Shown here: piece after piece, positions 1,490 to 10,547 of the stretch
Layout of the letters: each line of letters begins with the position of its first letter
Numbering within the stretch: the stretch's first letter is position 1
Virus record (IMG/VR): IMGVR_UViG_3300035501_000580
Direction: 5' to 3' (one strand)
Source: a virus
Taxonomy: Duplodnaviria; Heunggongvirae; Uroviricota; Caudoviricetes
DNA: 10,547 nucleotides
Translations under genes and position numbers: made by a program
Notes under the pieces: model-generated
What the model saw: only the letters and a program-made list of their open reading frames with translations
Told to the model about the DNA's origin: nothing
Databases searched by the model: none

Positions 1490-1834
1490 TTATTTCTTTT
1501 TTGAGCGATTATTTTTCGTAACGACTTCTTGTTCAAAATAGGGGTCATACCAGTTAAGGATACCGTCATCTTCATTGATTAGATAAACCCAGTAACCTTC
1601 TTCGAGTGGATTACCTTTGTTGTCTCTGGATTCGCCACTGATCCACCGAGCTTCAATTATTTCAACTGTTTTACCAGCGAAGTCGGAGTAAGGAGGATAC
1701 CATAATTCATCTTCTTCATCAGGGTCACAGATAATCAGAGGTTCATCATATCCGGGACAAACTTTAGAGAGAGATGATAGGTCTTTGACTTTTACTTTGT
1801 CTCCGACCTTGAAGTGGTTATTAGTTCTGTCCAT
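1490..1834 (-). CDS. Stand-alone module A (SH3/KOW-like) member of the window's paralog family
   Basis: FKVGDKVKVK...FAGKTVEII...YLINEDDGILNWYDPYFE matches the N-terminal module of the 210-249 aa paralogs; modules B and C are absent. Confidence 0.8.
   Translation of the reverse strand: MDRTNNHFKVGDKVKVKDLSSLSKVCPGYDEPLIICDPDEEDELWYPPYSDFAGKTVEIIEARWISGESRDNKGNPLEEGYWVYLINEDDGILNWYDPYFEQEVVTKNNRSKKK
1505..1519 (-). other. Gene-end motif copy ACGA-AAAATAA-TCGC
   Basis: + strand gcgattatttttcgt, within the last codons of 1490-1834. Confidence 0.65.
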
Positions 1835-1865
1835 TGTTTATTTTTTTAGACGATTTTCGTGACGA

Positions 1866-2198
1866 TTATTTACGGAAGAGTTCCACTTTGGTTGTACCGT
1901 TTTCGAGGGGAGTTTCAACTACATTAAAGTCGGTATATACATTGTCATTGATTTTGACATTACCAGTAGCGATGAAATTGTAGTAGTTGTCTTGACCGAT
2001 GTTGTAGGTAGTAGTACCATTTTCATAAACAACGTTGTCTTTGTTGCTTTTGAATTTACGGTAGGCTTCGCTGACTTTTCTGAAACCCATGACGAAAAGG
2101 AAACCACCAAGGATGAGAACTGCGATACCAAGATTACCGTTGATGATATGTTGATTATAAGCGGCCATCATTGAAAGACCTAAGAACATGCGTTTCAT
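1866..2198 (-). CDS. Small predicted membrane protein (110 aa)
   Basis: Hydrophobic stretch NLGIAVLILGGFLFVMGF followed by a basic segment; first gene after the tandem promoters. Confidence 0.8.
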   Translation of the reverse strand: MKRMFLGLSMMAAYNQHIINGNLGIAVLILGGFLFVMGFRKVSEAYRKFKSNKDNVVYENGTTTYNIGQDNYYNFIATGNVKINDNVYTDFNVVETPLENGTTKVELFRK

Positions 2199-2241
2199 TG
2201 TTTTTTGTTTTTTAGAGAGTTAAACTTGTTTTCTTTTTACA

Positions 2242-2316
2242 TTACAAAGATACTTGATTTTTTTGACTTGACCAAATTTTAAGTGCTAAAAATTTGTTAA
2301 ATCTTTTATCAATCAT
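2242..2316 (-). CDS. Possible 24-aa peptide MIDKRFNKFLALKIWSSQKNQVSL between the tandem promoters
   Basis: ATG at 2316 with A-rich upstream sequence, TAA at 2242-2244; it overlaps the promoter at 2245-2300, so it may be incidental. Confidence 0.25.
   Translation of the reverse strand: MIDKRFNKFLALKIWSSQKNQVSL
2245..2300 (-). promoter_or_regulatory. Bacteroidetes primary-sigma-type promoter P1
   Basis: TTTG (2276-2273), 20-nt spacer, TATCTTTG (2252-2245); matches the established -33/-7 consensus TTTG-N19-21-TAnnTTTG; upstream TTAAC-N6-TTAGC. Confidence 0.85.
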
Positions 2317-2344
2317 CTTTTCAATGTTCTTTTGTTTTACATTA

Positions 2345-2399
2345 CAAAGATACAAGTTTTTCTCGACATCTCCAAATAAAAACCGCTAAATAAAGCTAA
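2345..2399 (-). promoter_or_regulatory. Bacteroidetes primary-sigma-type promoter P2, exactly 100 bp upstream of P1
   Basis: TTTG (2376-2373), N20, TATCTTTG (2352-2345); upstream TTAGC-N5-TTAGC. Confidence 0.85.
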
Positions 2400-2419
2400 C
2401 AATATCTGAATACTGATTT

Positions 2420-2434
2420 ACGATTTATTTTCGT
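2420..2434 (-). other. Gene-end motif copy ACGA-AAATAAA-TCGT
   Basis: Overlaps the TGA stop of 2434-3183; 2418-2434 is a 17-nt exact match to 10335-10351. Confidence 0.75.
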
Positions 2435-3183
2435 CAATATTTCAAATGTCGTTCTGTGGTATCTTCATGACCAATCTCTGGATGTTTCATGAAGTAGAAT
2501 AGTGATTGACAGGCCGACTCATATACTCTGAAATAGTTACCGATTTTATACTGGTTCTCATCAAAGTCATCACCATAGTCATTCTTAGCGACCACATTGC
2601 CTATTTCATTTACATAGAAATAAACACCATAACGTTGAGCCCTCCAAGGAATAGGATTAAAGTCATTCCAATCTCTTTTATGTTTAGAGGGGAATAACAT
2701 GATTTCACCATCCTCATCAAACGTGCCATCTTTATGAAGTATCAGGTCGTTGTTGATATAGTATTTGTTTTTCTGGATTGTTTCTTCTCCGGGTAGTTTT
2801 GGTTTTCTCAGGAATATGCAATCACCATACATACTATCCACAACTACATCACCAATCATCGGACAGTAGAAGACTTGATTTTCTTCACATTTACCAAGGA
2901 TTTGAATTAGGTCGAGGATAGGGGTTTCAGTTCCATCTAAATTAACGAGAGCTGAGAAACAACCGGAAGTCCAGACGTTGTTATCTTCCTCAATGGTAAA
3001 ATAAGTTGAGTCTATTTTATCTTTAATGGTCACGATTTGGTCACAGAAATTACTCATGTCTTCTTTGAAATAGAAGGGGAGTTCAATCTTACCTATCGAG
3101 ATTTGTTTGGTGTTTGTATCTCTGTTCTCTAAATACCACTGTTGAGATTTGACTCTTACTTTATCACCTACATTTAATTTCAT
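2434..3183 (-). CDS. Three-module (A-B-C) paralog family protein, 249 aa
   Basis: VGDKVRVKSQQWY...FCDQIVTI...EED; FYCPMIG...MLFPSKHKRDWNDF; WRAQ...YFYVNEIG...IGNYF. Confidence 0.92.
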   Translation of the reverse strand: MKLNVGDKVRVKSQQWYLENRDTNTKQISIGKIELPFYFKEDMSNFCDQIVTIKDKIDSTYFTIEEDNNVWTSGCFSALVNLDGTETPILDLIQILGKCEENQVFYCPMIGDVVVDSMYGDCIFLRKPKLPGEETIQKNKYYINNDLILHKDGTFDEDGEIMLFPSKHKRDWNDFNPIPWRAQRYGVYFYVNEIGNVVAKNDYGDDFDENQYKIGNYFRVYESACQSLFYFMKHPEIGHEDTTERHLKY

Positions 3184-3200
3184 ATGATTGTTTGATTGTG

Positions 3201-3267
3201 AAAAATTTGGAGAATTGAATTTTATTTACTCTACAAATGTACAAGAAAAAATTCAATTCTCCAAATT
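3201..3267 (-). terminator. 20-bp perfect inverted repeat; probable terminator of 3310-4422, overlapping promoter P3
   Basis: AATTTGGAGAATTGAATTTT (3204-3223) and its exact reverse complement (3248-3267), 24-nt spacer; on the minus strand the stem ends in TTTTT. Confidence 0.6.
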
Positions 3268-3288
3268 AGTCATGCCAAAATATATTAA
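3234..3288 (-). promoter_or_regulatory. Bacteroidetes primary-sigma-type promoter P3
   Basis: TTTG (3265-3262), N20, TACATTTG (3241-3234); upstream TTAAT-N5-TTGGC; lies 50 bp upstream of the 3183 ATG. Confidence 0.8.
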
Positions 3289-3309
3289 AAATTCATTCAG
3301 TAAGTTCTA

Positions 3310-4422
3310 TTAATTTCGTGCGAATGAAATCGTTTTCCCCATAAGGTGGTCTTTAGGTGATTGATAAAATTCTCCATGTTCGACATCAACAATACATACA
3401 TCAGTTTTCATGTCTACATAGTTCACCTTAGAGTAGTCATATTTGTCACCATGAATTTCTTTGGCCATGTTGATGAAATACTCTTGACTTATTTTACGAT
3501 CTCGCTCAGCTTGGATGGGGTTTTCATCTGACTGTTTCTCGTCGAAGTCTTTCTCAGCGTTATTGATGAACCTTTTGATTGCTCGGTTTGATACTGATTG
3601 TCCAGTGTAACCATTCAAGTGGTGTCGTGGGGTTGACCAGAACGCACCATTCTCTGGACAGATGATACATACCTTGGTGTTTGAGTTTACATATTTCACC
3701 TTAGAGTAGTCGAATTTGTCACCATGAATTTCTTTGGCTCGGCGAATAAACTCATCCTGTGTCAGTTTGTGTTTCTCGTTTCGACATACAGCACAACCTT
3801 TTCCAGTGAGGTGGTCTTTAGGTGTCATCCAAAATTCACCATGTTTTGGACAGATGATACATACCTTAGTTCTTGCGTTTACGTACTTGGTTTTAGAATA
3901 GTCATACTTTTTACCATGCAGTCGTCGTGCCTCTTCAATAAACTCATCTGTTGTCATTTGGTGTTTATTATGCCAACAGTCCGGACAACCAAGTCCTTTC
4001 AAGTGGTTTATCGGGCTCATCCAGAACTCACCATGTTCAGGGCAGATGATACATACCTTGGTTTTTGAATTTACATACTCTACCAAGGAATAGTCATACT
4101 TGTCACCATGTACTTGTCGAGCTTGGTTAATGAACTTAGTTGTTGTCATCTTGTCAGCGAAACGAGGTTGGGATTTGTCCATTTCCAACTCGGTCTTGCG
4201 AATAAACTCAGTGTGTTCCTTTTGGTTGTCGAGGTTGATCTGATTTTCTCGACATGCTGGACAACCAAGGCCTTCCAAGTGGTTCTGCGGTGTCATCCAA
4301 AATTCACCATGTTCAGGGCAGATGATACATACTTTAGTTTTAGTGTTTACAAAATTGACTTTAGAATAGTCATACTTGTCACCATGTACTGCTTGTGCAG
4401 ATTCAATGAAATTTTTCGTCAT
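3310..4422 (-). CDS. DUF723-like zinc-finger-type repeat protein (5 repeats), homing-endonuclease-associated DNA-binding array without a visible nuclease domain
   Basis: Repeats FI..A..(V/I/L)HGDKYDYSK..YVN..TKVCIICP.HGEFW..P..HL.G.GC..C at aa 5-57, 97-149, 161-213, 225-277 and 316-368; the family name is from recall, not a search. Confidence 0.8.
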   Translation of the reverse strand: MTKNFIESAQAVHGDKYDYSKVNFVNTKTKVCIICPEHGEFWMTPQNHLEGLGCPACRENQINLDNQKEHTEFIRKTELEMDKSQPRFADKMTTTKFINQARQVHGDKYDYSLVEYVNSKTKVCIICPEHGEFWMSPINHLKGLGCPDCWHNKHQMTTDEFIEEARRLHGKKYDYSKTKYVNARTKVCIICPKHGEFWMTPKDHLTGKGCAVCRNEKHKLTQDEFIRRAKEIHGDKFDYSKVKYVNSNTKVCIICPENGAFWSTPRHHLNGYTGQSVSNRAIKRFINNAEKDFDEKQSDENPIQAERDRKISQEYFINMAKEIHGDKYDYSKVNYVDMKTDVCIVDVEHGEFYQSPKDHLMGKTISFARN

Positions 4423-4525
4423 AATACTATAACGTTTTTAAAAAAATTAAAATTAAAAATTAAAAAATTATTTGATTTTGTAAGATGTCGTTTAATTTAT
4501 CTTACATTATAATAATAACAAAAAA
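4423..4525. other. Extremely AT-rich spacer with (A)nTT repeats and an 8-bp hairpin (4479-4486 / 4499-4506)
   Basis: aaaaaaatt-aaaatt-aaaaatt-aaaaaatt run; TGTAAGAT/ATCTTACA inverted repeat; no TAnnTTTG box. Confidence 0.55.
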
Positions 4526-4855
4526 TTAGAGAGATGTCAACTTTTTGATAATATTTTTTCTTATTTTTTTGTTTTCCTCATTTCGTCTTTCGTCACGTAG
4601 GTCTTCAATATACTCTAATATATATAACCTCCGACCTTCATTCAAAAATACAGCCGCTCCTATTTCAAAGAAGTCGAATCGGTCGAAACAGTCCCTTGTC
4701 CATTTCATTTCTTTGGAAAGGTAATATTTCTTATTCTTATATCTTATCCGGACACAAAACTGAGGTTGAGGGTCATAGATGTTACCGGAGATAGGAACTA
4801 ACTTTACATTTTTCTTAGCTTCCTTTCTCAGTCGTTTCAGTATGGTTGTTTTCAT
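4526..4855 (-). CDS. Basic hypothetical phage protein (MKTTILKRLRK...), about 109 aa
   Basis: Start moved from 4942 to the ATG at 4855 to reduce overlap with the upstream gene; the start choice is inferred. Confidence 0.75.
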   Translation of the reverse strand: MKTTILKRLRKEAKKNVKLVPISGNIYDPQPQFCVRIRYKNKKYYLSKEMKWTRDCFDRFDFFEIGAAVFLNEGRRLYILEYIEDLRDERRNEENKKIRKNIIKKLTSL

Positions 4856-5318
4856 TTTCGTACTTTCGTTCGTCGTTAATTTTATCCAAGATATTATAGT
4901 AGTTGAGGAATAACAACCAACTGCATACATTAGGGAAGTCATGTGGTTCGGTTATCTCAGAAACAATGTCCAGGATCACAGTAATAATCCAAAACTTTTC
5001 ATTCCCCATGTATTTCCGCATGCGTTTCCTGATGAATGTGAAGTCCCCATAACCTTTGTCCTGTTTTTCCCTGATAACCTGTTCCATCCATCGTTCCACC
5101 CCTTCATCAGATTTCAGTATCATCCGGTCAATCACACAAGTGACCAACCATTCATTGGCATCTACTACCTCATCATCTTCAAATCCACGAAGGAAGAAGT
5201 CAGCACAACGACAACTGGAAATCTTATTATAGTTGTCATTAAGTTCACCAAATATTTCGATGGCTGAGTCTGGGACAGAATTTATCAGACGGTCGATGGT
5301 TTCTTTACTGGGAATCAT
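4815..5318 (-). CDS. Hypothetical protein (MIPSKETIDRL...), about 167 aa
   Basis: ATG at 5318 forms an ATGA overlap with the ASCH gene stop, which suggests translational coupling. Confidence 0.8.
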   Translation of the reverse strand: MIPSKETIDRLINSVPDSAIEIFGELNDNYNKISSCRCADFFLRGFEDDEVVDANEWLVTCVIDRMILKSDEGVERWMEQVIREKQDKGYGDFTFIRKRMRKYMGNEKFWIITVILDIVSEITEPHDFPNVCSWLLFLNYYNILDKINDERKYENENNHTETTEKGS

Positions 5319-5578
5319 TGGAAACTGATTACATAATATTGGACATCTGGTTGAGCTCCCCATTCTGGATTTCCGGTTCTGATGGAGATGTCAGTGATCT
5401 GAAAAGTCAAGGTTTCTGATGTGTAACCTTTATGGAAACAAACAGTATCGTAATTCGTATCGTCTAACCGTTTTGTCCAATAGGGTTTCACATCTCGGTA
5501 TTCCTCCCTTTTCACTCCTGACTCAATCATCTCATACCATTTGGATTTCAGGATAAGGTGTAGAGTTTTACCATTCAT
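5315..5578 (-). CDS. ASCH (PUA-like) domain protein, about 87 aa
   Basis: LHLILKSKWYEMIESGVKREEYR matches the ASCH GxKxxExR signature; the start at 5578 (MNGK) is inferred from the overlap. Confidence 0.8.
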   Translation of the reverse strand: MNGKTLHLILKSKWYEMIESGVKREEYRDVKPYWTKRLDDTNYDTVCFHKGYTSETLTFQITDISIRTGNPEWGAQPDVQYYVISFQ

Positions 5579-5822
5579 TATCAATTCCATCTTCAACTGG
5601 GACTTCTGGTTGCCAAGTAGACATGATTTTGAGTTCACCTTTCTGCTCCTTTTCTTTCAACTCATTCATAGCATCCTCATAAGTGTCAAACTCACAAGGG
5701 CAGATATGTTGCTTAGTAATGTTGAGGAATGAATACTTACCTCCTACCTTATGTTTGAAGATAGAGATGGTGTAGTATTTTTTCTTGTCGTAACGGTAAA
5801 TTGTAATAAAATCAGGCATCAT
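5568..5822 (-). CDS. Hypothetical phage protein (YSFLNITKQHICPCEF motif), 84 aa
   Basis: ORF tiles with its neighbours; CPC motif; no function recognised. Confidence 0.8.
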   Translation of the reverse strand: MMPDFITIYRYDKKKYYTISIFKHKVGGKYSFLNITKQHICPCEFDTYEDAMNELKEKEQKGELKIMSTWQPEVPVEDGIDNEW

Positions 5823-5859
5823 AATTTAACTAATTTTTATATTGTTTAACTATCTATGT

Positions 5860-6333
5860 TTACTGAGCTGAGTCCCATCCATCAACAAATTCCTGTAGAG
5901 TGGGTTGTCCCTCACAGTAGGTTGAAAACTTGGCCAAGACAACTAACTTAACCAGAACATCTAAAGGATCACCAGATTTATGGAAAATGACTTCCAGAGT
6001 TTCTTTAAGTGTCAGAGTAATGTCAACTTCATGATTTTGGTACACGATTATGGTCAACTCATATTTACTGGGGTTGATTCTCAGTGCATCTATCAGTGAC
6101 CAGAGAGACCAAGCAGGATACATGATGTCTGGATCCGTGTCTGAGTTCGGTAGTAGTTCACGTTGTAGACCATACTCATTATTTTCAAATCTTTCTTCAT
6201 ATTCGTTTTTCGTAATGAAGTTTCCCTCCATGTCTTTGAATATCCAATGATGGTCAGCTGAGTCAGGATTAATTCCACAGTCGAGAAGAATTGATGACTG
6301 TTTGATGGTTGTTACTGTTTTATTCGATGTCAT
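5860..6333 (-). CDS. Hypothetical phage protein, paralog of 1125-1487
   Basis: Shared N-terminal T..QS..LL..G...AD motif and PAWSL motif, with a longer insert between them. Confidence 0.85.
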   Translation of the reverse strand: MTSNKTVTTIKQSSILLDCGINPDSADHHWIFKDMEGNFITKNEYEERFENNEYGLQRELLPNSDTDPDIMYPAWSLWSLIDALRINPSKYELTIIVYQNHEVDITLTLKETLEVIFHKSGDPLDVLVKLVVLAKFSTYCEGQPTLQEFVDGWDSAQ

Positions 6334-6553
6334 ATTTTGGTTTAATTTGATATTCCTTTCTGGTTGGATCAGGAAATTGAGTTATCTCTATCGGTAGTGC
6401 CTCATCTATCCATCTTAAATCTGGCCAAAGTGCTGAGTCAATTTGGAACACATCTCCTCGACCACACCAGATTTTATAGTGGTTATGACGAGCTGGTTTT
6501 GATTTGAATAAGTGAAGGACATCATTTCCATCACGAGCTACATAAAATTTCAT
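6320..6553 (-). CDS. Small hypothetical phage protein (YVARD...LHLFKSKP...W), 77 aa
   Basis: ATGA overlap with 6550-7026; 14-nt overlap with the downstream gene. Confidence 0.8.
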   Translation of the reverse strand: MKFYVARDGNDVLHLFKSKPARHNHYKIWCGRGDVFQIDSALWPDLRWIDEALPIEITQFPDPTRKEYQIKPKYDIE

Positions 6554-7026
6554 TCTTCCGGTTTTTGATGTCGTTCCATTGCAGATAATAAAACTTGGTA
6601 GGATTGGAATAGTGGAGTTGACCGTGCGATTTCTTTCGTCTGGAAATAATTACATATCATCCATCGAGTTTGGTCTTTAGTAGTGTCCATCTCAGTGTCC
6701 TCCCGAATCGTTCCAACCTCATCAATGTAGTAGTAAGTGTCCCCTTCGTCACCTCGCCACCTCAGAGGAATCTTGTCTGACCATTTTGACCAATCCTGTT
6801 GTCTCTTGTTAGGAAATATCATCAGCTCACTATTAGGAAAATCAACAGGTCGACCAAATTCATCAAAGACAACCTCATCTCCATCTAAGACCTTGAACTG
6901 AAGCCGGCGGTACTCTAAAAAACTCTGGAAGTACATATCACCATAAAGAGGACTCCAAAACAACGTAGGAAACCACCGGAGTTCATCTCGGCTATGTAAA
7001 GTGTCGAATAGATTGAATTTACTCAT
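6550..7026 (-). CDS. Paralog family member with modules B+C only (158 aa)
   Basis: LFWSPLYG...FDEFG...MIFPNKRQQDWSKW; WRG...YYYIDEVG...CNYFQTKEIA; module A is absent. Confidence 0.9.
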   Translation of the reverse strand: MSKFNLFDTLHSRDELRWFPTLFWSPLYGDMYFQSFLEYRRLQFKVLDGDEVVFDEFGRPVDFPNSELMIFPNKRQQDWSKWSDKIPLRWRGDEGDTYYYIDEVGTIREDTEMDTTKDQTRWMICNYFQTKEIARSTPLFQSYQVLLSAMERHQKPEE

Positions 7027-7321
7027 GTTTTAGTCGATTATAGGTCTGGTAACTTTCTTCAAAAAACGGATCACTGAAGTCCGGAAAGAAAGCATCCATG
7101 ATTAACTTGGTTTCTACACTTGGTTCAGGGCTACGGTAATCAGGACAAATATAATTGCAGATTAACTGAGCGAACCTTTGACTTGGGTATTCTTCAATTA
7201 ATGTCTTGATTTCGTCGGCTCGGTTTTGAATCACACTGTTGGATTTGATTAGCTCATAAATCTGATAGTTGTAATTCTGCCTTTGACCGACACCAAGAGG
7301 TACATTGGTCACTATACTCAT
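7019..7321 (-). CDS. Hypothetical phage protein (EYPSQRFAQLICN...DPFFEES), 100 aa
   Basis: Overlaps both neighbours (ATGA with 7318-7950); unrelated to the flanking family. Confidence 0.85.
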   Translation of the reverse strand: MSIVTNVPLGVGQRQNYNYQIYELIKSNSVIQNRADEIKTLIEEYPSQRFAQLICNYICPDYRSPEPSVETKLIMDAFFPDFSDPFFEESYQTYNRLKHE

Positions 7322-7950
7322 TGTTCCGTATTTAATAGTTTATACAATTCACTATCTTCTGCGAATTCTCTCGTGCGAAAATAGTTGTGAATAACATATC
7401 TCTGTCGGTCTTGGTAACTGTCACAATCTCGAACATAAACAATATCACCAATATCATTCACATAGTAGTAAGATTGATTTATCTCAGCACGCCAACCTGT
7501 AGGGATGTTTTTCAGTTTTGTCCAATCTCTCTGGTACGCATCTGGAAACAGGAGACATTCACCAGCGGGACTTCCGTCGAGTCTTCCAAACCTGTCGAAT
7601 ATGTGAGCTCGGATATCTATTTCGGAATCTACCTCCCAAACCAAAATCTCACCAGTGTCCATTACATTCTTTAGTTCCACAAATCCATAAGCTGGTGAAT
7701 ACAAGATTGTCCCTTCTTTGAAATATCTCAGGATGTGGTTTATGTCCACCCGGCTTTCTTCAATCAGGAAATCATCATACCATTTGAACCTTCCATCATC
7801 TTCATACATCTGGTAACTTCCATCTGGGTTCACATCACAAACAGTCATGACCTCATCTATGAACTGTTCCATTCCAGATATAATTTTAGCTGATGAATTG
7901 AACTGACCGAGACTCACACGAACTTTATCGTATTTCGTATATTTAGCCAT
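7318..7950 (-). CDS. Three-module paralog family protein, 210 aa
   Basis: YDKVRVS...YEDDGRFKW; GTILYSPAYG...GECLLFP...RDW; WRAE..YYYVNDIG...HNYFRTRE. Confidence 0.92.
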   Translation of the reverse strand: MAKYTKYDKVRVSLGQFNSSAKIISGMEQFIDEVMTVCDVNPDGSYQMYEDDGRFKWYDDFLIEESRVDINHILRYFKEGTILYSPAYGFVELKNVMDTGEILVWEVDSEIDIRAHIFDRFGRLDGSPAGECLLFPDAYQRDWTKLKNIPTGWRAEINQSYYYVNDIGDIVYVRDCDSYQDRQRYVIHNYFRTREFAEDSELYKLLNTEQ

Positions 7951-7952
7951 CT

Positions 7953-8630
7953 TTAACTTTCCCTTTCTCGATAGATACGCCAGAATTTACTTCCTTTCGC
8001 ATCTCGTTCATTAATAAAATAGTTGTGGATTTTATACCTCATGTCATCTACGTCGGTGTGAAAATCCTTGGTCACTTGAATATGTCCAACCTCATCAACA
8101 AAGAAATATGAAAATCCAAAGTCCTTTCTCGGCCACTCATCAACTACTTCCAGTTCTTTCCATGATTTCACATCTTCATTAGGGAAAAGTGAAACGGGAA
8201 CATGAAGTGGAGTGTTGTCATGGTTGGGTTCACAATTAAACTGTCCATATCTGTTGAACTCATAACTCTGCATGTTTTTGAGAACTCGTATGGTCTGAGT
8301 ATCCGGGTTCAACATTTCTACGTAAACTGTGCCAAGAAAATTACACCACAAGTAATCATAGTCCTTGATGTTTCGGTAGATTGTTTGGAAGATATTAACA
8401 GGTTCAAAGCCAGCGAACATCTCATCTCGCCAAACATTTCCACCCCCATCCTCATCAATCAAATAACTGTCATCAATCACATCAGAGATAGTTACAGTCT
8501 GGTCACAAAATTTAACCATGTCAGGAGTGAAAATATAAGCACCACAAGTGACACCTACATTCAGGAATTTCTTAGTGTCATACCAATTTTTTGATTTGAC
8601 CACTACTCTATCACCTACTTTGTAATTCAT
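7953..8630 (-). CDS. Three-module paralog family protein, 225 aa
   Basis: VGDRVVVKSKNWY...FCDQTVTI...DEDGGGNVWRDEMF; LWCNFLG...SLFP...SW; YFFVDEVG...HNYF. Confidence 0.92.
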   Translation of the reverse strand: MNYKVGDRVVVKSKNWYDTKKFLNVGVTCGAYIFTPDMVKFCDQTVTISDVIDDSYLIDEDGGGNVWRDEMFAGFEPVNIFQTIYRNIKDYDYLWCNFLGTVYVEMLNPDTQTIRVLKNMQSYEFNRYGQFNCEPNHDNTPLHVPVSLFPNEDVKSWKELEVVDEWPRKDFGFSYFFVDEVGHIQVTKDFHTDVDDMRYKIHNYFINERDAKGSKFWRIYRERES

Positions 8631-8653
8631 ATCGTTTTCTTTTTACTGATTAG

Positions 8654-8668
8654 ATGATTTGTTTTCGT
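8654..8668 (-). other. Gene-end motif copy ACGA-AAACAAA-TCAT
   Basis: 2 nt after the TAA of 8671-9345; followed by CTAATCAGTA, like the AAATCAGTA after the 2420 and 9466 copies. Confidence 0.6.
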
Positions 8669-8670
8669 AA

Positions 8671-9345
8671 TTAATAGTGAAGTTTATGGTATGCTTGGTA
8701 AATGTCACTACGGAAGGCCTCAGCTCTCGTGAAGAAATAATTGAAAGCCTCATAACGGAGAATGTCACGTTCTGTTGTTTTATCTACTGTTCCTTGTATT
8801 GTTCCGTACTGGTCGATGAAGTAATATTCTGCCTCTTCATATCGCTCACTTCTGTGGAAACCAAGGAAATTCTCCCAAGTGTTTGTTTTTGAGTCTGGGA
8901 ATAAACAAGGCTGAGTTCCAATCACTTTTCCATTGAAGGTGACTTGACCATACTCATTGAATGTTGCTTCTTCTCCATCTGATGTCAGAACAGTGATGGT
9001 TTTGTCCTCATTCACATTTTCCAGTTTTACCTTACCACCATAAAGAGGACAATAGAGAACATAACCTTTCTTAGCATGTTTTAGAATGTCATATATGTTA
9101 GCGGGGAGGAATTCATCTTCCATCATTTCCTCAGTCCATCTATAACATCCACCATCCTCATCAACTGTAAATGTGCCATCTTTAAAGGTTTCTCGAACAG
9201 TGACTATTTGACCACAGTACCGTTGCATGTCCCTGAAAAACGTATTACCATCATCAAAAGAGATATGTCCATTGAATTGTCCATTGTAGAGACTGTCATA
9301 CCACTGAAGGGATTTAACTCTATATTGATTGTTGACTTTTTTCAT
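8671..9345 (-). CDS. Three-module paralog family protein, 224 aa
   Basis: YRVKSLQWY...YCGQIVTV...DEDGG.YRW; LYCPLYG...CLFP...TW; YYFIDQYG...NYFFTRAEA. Confidence 0.92.
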   Translation of the reverse strand: MKKVNNQYRVKSLQWYDSLYNGQFNGHISFDDGNTFFRDMQRYCGQIVTVRETFKDGTFTVDEDGGCYRWTEEMMEDEFLPANIYDILKHAKKGYVLYCPLYGGKVKLENVNEDKTITVLTSDGEEATFNEYGQVTFNGKVIGTQPCLFPDSKTNTWENFLGFHRSERYEEAEYYFIDQYGTIQGTVDKTTERDILRYEAFNYFFTRAEAFRSDIYQAYHKLHY

Positions 9346-9390
9346 TGTTTCTTGTTTTATTGGGTTTAACTTTGTTTTTTATTTACACTA

Positions 9391-9445
9391 CAAAGTTACT
9401 GGTTTTTTCTGACTTCTCCAAATAAAAACAGCTAATTAATGTTAA
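9391..9445 (-). promoter_or_regulatory. Bacteroidetes primary-sigma-type promoter P4
   Basis: TTTG (9422-9419), N20, TAACTTTG (9398-9391); upstream TTAAC-N5-TTAGC. Confidence 0.85.
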
Positions 9446-9465
9446 CAATTTCTGATTACTGATTT

Positions 9466-9480
9466 ACGATTATTTTTCGT
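9466..9480 (-). other. Gene-end motif copy ACGA-AAAATAA-TCGT
   Basis: Contains the last codons and the TAA stop of 9470-10186. Confidence 0.75.
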
Positions 9481-10186
9481 CATCGTCAGAACCAAACAAC
9501 AAATCATCAAAACAACCCGGATGTGATTCCATTGATGTCTGGTATTTTATAATCAAATCCTCATCATTGGGAGCATTGACATGAAATCCCTTGTAAATGT
9601 CTGACTTCCGAGCTTCATCTATAGTGGGAAAATAATTGTGAACCCTCCAACGTGTGAACTCCAATTTCTTTCCCTGTTCAATGTCATGTTTAATATCACC
9701 ATCGGAATCCACATAGTAATAAAAGTCATGTCGCTTCGCTTTCCAAGGTTTATTCGGAATCACAAACTCACTCCAATCCCGGCACTTTTCACTTGGCCAC
9801 AGAATACACTCTCCGGGTATGTTATCTCGCCACCGCCCAGACTTGTCAATTTCAATGATGGTTTGTTTATTCACCACACGAAGACCTATCGTATCCTTAT
9901 GTACATCTACGAGTTCAACATACCCAAAGACCGGAGACCACAAGATTGTCCCTTTCGCATAAGCCAAGATAACACTCAGGTCGAACTCATACAAGTCGAA
10001 CTCACATTCCATCCAGTCATTAACACCCTCATCTTCAACAATAGTATAACCCCAGTCGGTAATTCGTGCGATAGTGACAACCTGACCAATATACTTCTCT
10101 TTCGATTTCAGTATATTGTTATGGTACATCTCAACATACCATTTGTGGGACTTTACTCTAACTTTCTCACCAATGTTAAATTTCAT
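9470..10186 (-). CDS. Three-module paralog family protein with an acidic C-terminal tail, 238 aa
   Basis: IGEKVRVKSHKWY...YIGQVVTI...EDEG..W; GTILWSPVFG...GECILWPS..RDW; WKAK..YYYVDSDG...HNYFPT. Confidence 0.92.
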   Translation of the reverse strand: MKFNIGEKVRVKSHKWYVEMYHNNILKSKEKYIGQVVTIARITDWGYTIVEDEGVNDWMECEFDLYEFDLSVILAYAKGTILWSPVFGYVELVDVHKDTIGLRVVNKQTIIEIDKSGRWRDNIPGECILWPSEKCRDWSEFVIPNKPWKAKRHDFYYYVDSDGDIKHDIEQGKKLEFTRWRVHNYFPTIDEARKSDIYKGFHVNAPNDEDLIIKYQTSMESHPGCFDDLLFGSDDDEK

Positions 10187-10197
10187 GACACTAATTG

Positions 10198-10332
10198 TTA
10201 AAGGTCATAGTCAAAGTCGATTTCTGAGCCAATTTTATCATCAGCGAAACGGTTCAAGATTTCCATTACATCTGAAAGGTCATCTTCACCATACTCATCT
10301 TTCAGAGCATCTTCAAGTCGGATTTTTTTCAT
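10198..10332 (-). CDS. Unlisted 44-aa acidic protein MKKIRLEDALKDEYGEDDLSDVMEILNRFADDKIGSEIDFDYDL
   Basis: Hand-translated; starts 2 nt after the upstream stop (TAATCATG, the same junction as at 1487/1490) and ends 11 nt before the next ATG, filling the gap exactly. Confidence 0.8.
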   Translation of the reverse strand: MKKIRLEDALKDEYGEDDLSDVMEILNRFADDKIGSEIDFDYDL

Positions 10333-10334
10333 GA

Positions 10335-10547
10335 TTACGATTTATTTTCGTTTAGTTCAATTAAAATCTTATTGTCATCATGCGTGTTTCCAAGTACCTC
10401 CCATGTCTCAGGCTCATAACACCCATCATAATCTACTATGTCCAAATATTCCAAATCTTCAAACAACTTAGGATTGTCAGACTTAATAATCATCACAACG
10501 AACTTGAAATCTATAAATTTCACAATACCCCAGACGGTTGCATCATT
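10335..10547 (-). CDS. YopX-family phage protein, 5'-truncated by the window edge
   Basis: The frame is open to position 10547 (NDATVWGIVKFIDF...); C-terminal WEVLGNTHD resembles the YopX 'EV(I/L)GN(I)(Y/H)(E/D)' signature. Confidence 0.7.
   Translation of the reverse strand, partial: NDATVWGIVKFIDFKFVVMIIKSDNPKLFEDLEYLDIVDYDGCYEPETWEVLGNTHDDNKILIELNENKS
10337..10351 (-). other. Gene-end motif copy ACGA-AAATAAA-TCGT
   Basis: Encodes the final ENKS of the YopX-like gene; identical to the 2420 copy. Confidence 0.75.

Follow-up and report, generated by a model that had tools for sequence, protein, structure and literature searches.

The window analyzed here, a stretch of 10,547 nucleotides corresponding to bases 49894–60440 of a 217,491-bp IMG/VR virus record (IMGVR_UViG_3300035501_000580), carries several copies of a bipartite palindrome, ACGA-N7-TCGT, hereafter the dyad, which an initial annotation of the window alone had described as a frame-independent motif marking the 3′ ends of genes. 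The dyad is present in 32 copies in the record against 0.91 expected (~35-fold), four of them in the window against 0.06 expected, and comparison with relatives points to nucleotide-level selection specific to this phage lineage. When spacings of 0 to 25 bases between ACGA and TCGT were scanned, seven bases gave the 32 copies, six gave nine, and all others 0 to 4. Among the 256 4-mers, ACGA is alone in forming an enriched spaced dyad. The defining feature is the palindromic frame and not the A-rich core of the gene-end copies; the fuller consensus is RCGAW-N5-WTCGY, with a 6-base spacer tolerated. Pooled, the sites with six or seven spacer bases number 41, a density of about 1 per 5 kb.

The source is an uncultivated T4-like giant phage with Bacteroidota-type promoters. 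Its record (32% G+C; CheckV completeness estimate 54%) encodes a capsid gene of the Gp23 family, places about 85% of its genes on the minus strand, and has promoters with a TTTG element at −33 and TAnnTTTG at −7. The proteins of the window matched no Pfam family and had no homologues beyond their own cluster, and scans of viral and metagenome data returned no close strain covering it. The cluster of one 238-amino-acid protein extends over 12 contigs, of which the longest measures 351,880 bp. The nearest usable relatives were a 345-kb phage (G001) and a metagenome-assembled genome (MAG) contig, G006:C1, syntenic with 153–208 kb of the record at ~70% nucleotide identity.

The dyad is sharply bounded in sequence. 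One-mismatch variants number 24 in the record against ~40 expected, and the only mismatch classes to exceed their expectation of 0.36 are GCGA...TCGT (2) and ACGA...TCGC (3), a mirror pair whose symmetry fits a reading of half-sites on duplex DNA and not of an RNA helix, in which one variant would pair G-U and the other A-C. The spacer bases adjoining the two half-sites are A or T in 27/32 and 32/32 copies.

Several lines of evidence place the conservation at the level of nucleotides, as had been proposed from the window copies. Of the 41 sites, 31 lie within genes, and the in-gene copies are divided almost evenly among frames 0, 1, and 2 (8, 7, and 7), on which ground we rejected a peptide motif. 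These copies use rare codons, ACG making up 5% of threonine codons and TCG 3% of serine codons. When synonymous codons were shuffled within each gene, keeping protein sequence and codon usage, the 22 observed in-gene N7 copies stood against 1.4 on average and never more than 5. Isolated ACGA words on the sense strand were fewer than under this null, so a general excess of sense-strand ACGA was rejected, and the paired dyads stand out further against that scarcity. Coding sense-strand ACGA reaches 47–62% of the codon-shuffle expectation and TCGT is at expectation, a deficit that points to CpG avoidance across NAC|GAN codon junctions.

Twelve sites could be aligned to the relatives, and the motif was present in none of the 12; neither G001 nor G006:C1 has any N7 copy. 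At six of the 12 the peptide in the relative is identical, or almost so, but is written in commoner codons, for example at TKNIR, YDNNSS, PREGFV, and DDLFR. TKNIR is written ACG AAA AAC ATT CGT in this phage and ACA AAA AAT ATC AGA in the relative, and YDNNSS is TAC GAT AAC AAT TCG TCG as compared with TAT GAT AAT AAT TCC TCA. In one case a direct ACGA-N3-ACGA pair was likewise of synonymous origin by comparison with the relative. The absence of the motif from relatives, together with retention of the peptides in commoner codons, argues that selection on the nucleotides is specific to this lineage. One site was also covered by a 98.7%-identical strain that retained the motif, which at such identity is uninformative. 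Beyond these relatives, the exact 15-mer occurred as a singleton in each of 89 other viral contigs, and the cassette pattern described below was found in no other viral contig. A literature search found no report of the motif, its sole string match being an unrelated mycobacterial NrtR site. Candidate analogous dyads in the relatives, the best being TGCA-N8-TGCA and TCAGA-N4-TCTGA, were rejected as lying in coding repeats with a 12-nt period.

The sites are unevenly placed. The early/middle region (35–133 kb) holds 32 of the 41. Seven are within 16 nt of a stop codon (1.9 expected) and four lie no more than 5 nt upstream of a called start (0.3 expected), in fact 1–4 nt before it; a fifth start-adjacent site precedes a 44-amino-acid open reading frame (ORF), 10198–10332, that the gene caller overlooked. 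Promoter elements, whether early, middle, or late, are preceded at a distance of 100 nt or less by ten of the 41 sites (~2.2 expected) and followed over the same distance by one at most. The description of the dyad as a marker of gene 3′ ends therefore holds for a subclass of sites only, since most copies are inside genes. A general ribosome-binding or start signal was rejected, ACGAA reaching just ~2.3-fold enrichment over the 40 nt ahead of starts, as was a late promoter, since the ATAAAT core is confined to four identical copies and the late motif of the phage is YATAAATA.

Four dyads each make up the 5′ edge of a recurring cassette of ~100 nt, which consists of TGACGAAAA(T)AAATCGTA, a variable linker of ~30 nt, and a consensus promoter (TTTG-N20-TAnnTTTG in 4/4). 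The distance from dyad to −7 element is 67–69 nt in all four despite the diverged linker. Mean column identity among the cassettes is ~80%, in contrast to 27% amino-acid identity between the paralogous genes preceding two of them, so the cassette is not left-over duplication. Four direct copies of the dyad, at 52313, 60230, 62254, and 67465 of the record, share the spacer AAATAAA, and the spacers of the other sites are unrelated.

All window features given here are on the minus strand. The five copies reported by the initial annotation, at 1505, 2420, 8654, 9466, and 10337, are present with the sequences it gave, each no more than 16 nt from a stop codon and read in different frames or lying after the stop; also evident in the sequence are the 17 identical nucleotides shared by the copies at 2420 and 10337, as well as the (A/T)AATCAGTA tail that follows copies. 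The perfect dyad ACGAAAATAAATCGT at 2420–2434 supplies, as its first A, the last base of the TGA stop of gene 2434–3183, and this copy is the 5′ edge of cassette 1, whose host-type promoter TTTG-N20-TATCTTTG occupies 2345–2376 with the −7 element beginning 67 nt after the dyad. The dyad ACGAAAAATAATCGT at 9466–9480 holds within its spacer the TAA stop of gene 9470–10186, is preceded by an extra ACGA 2 nt upstream (to 9486), and forms the 5′ edge of cassette 2, in which the promoter TTTG-N20-TAACTTTG (9391–9422) has the same 67-nt offset. A second perfect ACGAAAATAAATCGT at 10337–10351 begins with its last T the TAA stop of a YopX-like gene and lies 4 nt from the ATG of the overlooked 44-amino-acid ORF.

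Two of the five copies deviate from the consensus. That at 1505–1519, ACGAAAAATAATCGC, has the outer A/T pair changed to G/C, the only enriched mismatch class, and sits at the 3′ end of gene 1490–1834, 17 nt ahead of the next ATG. The look-alike ACGAAAACAAATCAT at 8654–8668 is 3 nt past the stop of gene 8671–9345, with the next ATG 23 nt further on; across the genome there is no enrichment of the class with a TCAT half-site to which it belongs, and its membership is therefore uncertain. Four of the five copies had been said to follow members of a paralog family; three do so firmly, but the fourth case is weak, gene 1490–1834 sharing only VGDKVKVK with the family.

Full-length copies were also thought to be lacking within genes, which is incorrect in the window as in the record as a whole. 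A perfect dyad with a G+C-containing spacer, ACGATAGGTCTTCGT, lies at 9878–9892 in the middle of gene 9470–10186, where it is read T-I-G-L-R, and a composite of ACGA-N3-ACGA overlapping ACGA-N6-TCGT (7918–7938, the N6 dyad at 7918–7931) is found 12–19 nt inside the 5′ end of gene 7318–7950. What was taken for a degenerate tandem pair at 1850–1875 is a cluster of words, TCGT-c-ACGA-aaa-TCGT (1850–1865), at the junction of genes 1866–2198 and 1490–1834, in which 1850–1860 reads ACGA-N3-TCGT with a further TCGT alongside. Arrays of ACGA in the sense orientation occur in the window as well: the direct pair ACGAAAGACGA at 4583–4593, in the context TGACGAAAGACGAAATG, stands immediately before an ATG; four words, ACGACGAACGAAAGTACGA, fill 4858–4876, with a TAA stop before them and the next ATG after them; the array ACGAtACGAattACGA at 5448–5463 is one of four copies in the record of ACGA-N1-ACGA-N3-ACGA; and another array is at 6203. 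The sequence TCGTACGA occurs seven times in the record.

Binding of a protein dimer, already suggested for the window copies, is the best available reading, and we tentatively favor it: the dyads may plausibly be scattered sites for a dimeric DNA-binding protein of high specificity, the putative reader. Such a reader would most likely be a homodimer on double-stranded DNA whose subunits touch half-sites one helical turn apart, the A+T-rich spacer lying between them, and the sites, in-gene copies included, would be kept by selection on the DNA sequence itself. The subset at stops, 1–4 nt before starts, and upstream of promoters would then mark boundaries of transcription or translation units, where the protein, once bound, could prevent read-through or tune the promoter or start that follows. 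The operators of dimeric phage repressors such as that of phage 434 (ACAA-N6-TTGT), together with dispersed operator sets such as those of P1 C1 and RK2 KorB, offer a precedent, with 4-bp inverted half-sites about one helical turn apart around an A+T-rich, nonconserved spacer and with many copies across a large replicon at varied distances from promoters. The phage dyads differ from these operators in being unusually sharp and mostly in coding DNA, and the operators have no counterpart to the sense-biased direct ACGA arrays.

Several observations weigh against a simple dimer. About 60% of the sites are at unremarkable in-gene positions, late structural genes included. Transcription-factor sites are usually degenerate, and one-mismatch forms of the dyad are, if anything, depleted. 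HTH_3 and ParB_N domains are absent from the 217-kb record, a search in which few families were tried and which covered a genome estimated to be 54% complete. Direct ACGA-N3-ACGA pairs number 18 in the sense and 2 in the antisense orientation against ~0.9 expected, and 22 clusters of at least three ACGA/TCGT words were counted where 2.3 would be expected. The sense-biased arrays and the sense-specific preferences of the dyad are not accounted for by a symmetric DNA dimer, and with such strand dependence a reader acting on RNA, or one of several modules, stays under consideration.

The window itself encodes a speculative candidate for the reader, a 370-amino-acid protein (3310–4422) with five tandem zinc-finger modules of the homing-endonuclease type and no nuclease domain. 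Its modules match phrog_681, phrog_559, and DUF723, a type seen in phage HNH and other homing endonucleases, and by sequence it has no relative in the PDB. The protein is absent from G001 and G006:C1, both of which also lack the motif. It is no more than a lead.

Unlikely, in our estimation, is an element acting in RNA, in which sense ACGA(AA), alone, arrayed, or paired with UCGU as a hairpin of 4 bp and a 7-nt loop, would be bound or cut by a phage protein. An RNA-binding protein or endoribonuclease of this kind would control early mRNAs, T4 RegA and RegB being analogues. The direct repeats and arrays of ACGA are sense-biased, and the dyad has preferences specific to the sense orientation, with A at spacer position 2 (25/32) and A in the 3′ flank after TCGT (19/32). 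Several sites and arrays adjoin start codons, site density peaks in the early/middle region, and a hairpin would tolerate a loop of 6 or 7. The pattern of variation speaks against pairing, however: besides the mirror-image variants already described, there are no compensatory changes, G-U wobble variants of the dyad are not enriched, and no other palindromic 4-mer is enriched, for which reason general selection for small hairpins was also rejected. The next stem pair is Watson–Crick in 10/41 sites against 28% expected, and the stem never extends beyond 4 bp. The predicted hairpins are marginal, −1.3 to −3 kcal/mol for most copies, and are followed by no T run. The lack of mismatch enrichment, stem extension, and wobble makes a structural RNA hairpin or terminator unlikely. 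As the initial annotation had correctly concluded, the dyad is not an intrinsic terminator, which requires a G+C-rich stem of at least 5 bp and a U run. The scan found only two canonical hairpin-plus-T-run terminators, at 233–203 and 145–124, standing in tandem where they end the minus-strand gene block on the low-coordinate side of the window; with these the phage would have no need of the dyad for that purpose.

We are similarly doubtful that the dyad is an iterated palindrome of the HIP1 kind, that is, a target for some DNA enzyme or structural system of strict specificity, such as a bipartite Type I-like methyltransferase coded in the missing half of the genome, with the number of sites and not their position being selected or driven by biased repair. 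HIP1 (GCGATCGC) of cyanobacteria is over-represented 15–300-fold in and between ORFs and kept by selection (PMC5861425), and it has been linked to methyltransferases (PMC4390886). The two elements resemble each other as strict palindromes over-represented tens of times, in and between genes and independent of frame, apparently selected and with no agreed function. The dyad too is over-represented at least 15-fold genome-wide, within ORFs as well as between them and in every frame. Its sharpness is like that of a restriction-enzyme site, with R/Y degeneracy at the outer base and depletion of near-cognate sites, and most sites are at arbitrary in-gene positions and made by synonymous changes. 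The tetranucleotide GCGC occurs once in the record (0.01 of expectation), and its near absence indicates that restriction pressure has shaped this genome; the 54-kb contig G006:C1 has no copy. Such depletion suggests strong avoidance of a GCGC-specific restriction system, despite the C5 methyltransferase of the phage itself.

Unlike HIP1, the dyad is bipartite with a variable spacer, resides in a virus and not a cell, numbers about 40 and not thousands, and is lacking in every available relative. The partial genome yielded no matching methyltransferase: a Type I M subunit is missing from its 217 kb, the sole S-subunit match is below the family cut-off, and the only methyltransferase seen is the C5 enzyme, which would not read a bipartite site. 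The use of two spacer lengths, the enrichment of sites at gene and promoter boundaries, and their lack of conservation in relatives at ~70% nucleotide identity (0/12) also argue against this explanation. No comparable density was found in 401 Bacteroidota genomes and four MAGs, which likewise led us to reject mimicry of a host genome.

Possible, though short of probable, is a broader idea, that the virus carries an iterated palindrome of its own, a lineage-specific bipartite word written into both early and late genes by synonymous rare-codon changes and read by a dedicated factor. To our knowledge, no such system has been described for phages. Its function would depend on the number of sites, as in self-marking, genome organization, or the insulation of long one-directional early operons, and its reader could be, for example, the nuclease-less zinc-finger array of the window. 

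Selection has repeatedly overridden codon preference in favor of an exact 8-base bipartite word of which relatives at ~70% identity have none, a contrast implying that the reader arose recently, is highly specific, and acts across the genome. With its identification would come either a new global regulator or insulator acting on the early transcription of giant phages, or a counterpart in viruses to HIP1, which is itself unexplained. Because the motif is brief, exact, and simple to mutate, synthetic DNA would allow direct assays of binding, methylation, and RNA ends even for an uncultivated phage.

A site for the shuffling of gene cassettes, either a recombinase core or the patch of homology in a promoter cassette like those termed PeSL (below) within a T4-type hyperplastic region, is a distinctly remote prospect, and the earlier suggestion of a recombination or insertion site finds little support. 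The dyad is the exact 5′ boundary of the four cassettes, which are far more alike than the flanking paralogs, and four direct copies have identical spacers. Recombinase core sites have a similar layout to that of 4-bp arms around an A+T spacer of 6–7 bp. In T4-like phages, promoter-early stem-loop (PeSL) cassettes mediate such shuffling, their stem-loops being stable terminators (PMC2839356, PMC4122927). The phage cassettes resemble PeSLs in placing a palindrome ahead of an A+T-rich stretch and of a consensus early promoter of host type, in recurring next to ORFans where the early region of a T4-like phage is variable, and in being far better conserved than the flanking genes. The dyad, in contrast, has 4-bp arms, no T run, and negligible stability, so does not act as a terminator, and it also occurs about 30 times inside genes, remote from promoters. 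Tyrosine (PF00589) and serine (PF00239) recombinases are absent from the 217-kb partial genome, most copies are in genes, some of them conserved structural genes, with unrelated spacers, and no relative shares the region for mapping of breakpoints.

It is all but certain that the dyad is not a product of chance, a compositional artefact, or similarity left over from gene duplication, for although the gene-end copies have A-rich spacers like the sequence of ordinary A+T-rich junctions and four copies share ancestry through the cassette, the explanation is refuted by the 35-fold enrichment, the strict spacing, and the codon-shuffle counts (22 compared with 1.4), and the contexts and spacers of the sites are unrelated.

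Three further observations concern the relatives and the rest of the record. The contig G006:C1 (CAMEUD010000001.1), which matches the structural region of the phage, is binned in a MAG labeled "uncultured Clostridia" and is probably a phage contig misassigned to that bin; similar contigs are present in two Bacteroidales MAGs. CpG stands at 0.19 of expectation in the 345-kb phage G001 and at 0.58 in the present record, so related giant phages differ sharply in CpG suppression. Outside the window, at 182273–182705 of the record, a 27-nt unit with a consensus near TTGCTACTATAACACGTTTGGACAATA is repeated head to tail in 17 copies; by the ORF calls this array falls in a long minus-strand ORF, in which it would encode a 9-residue repeat.

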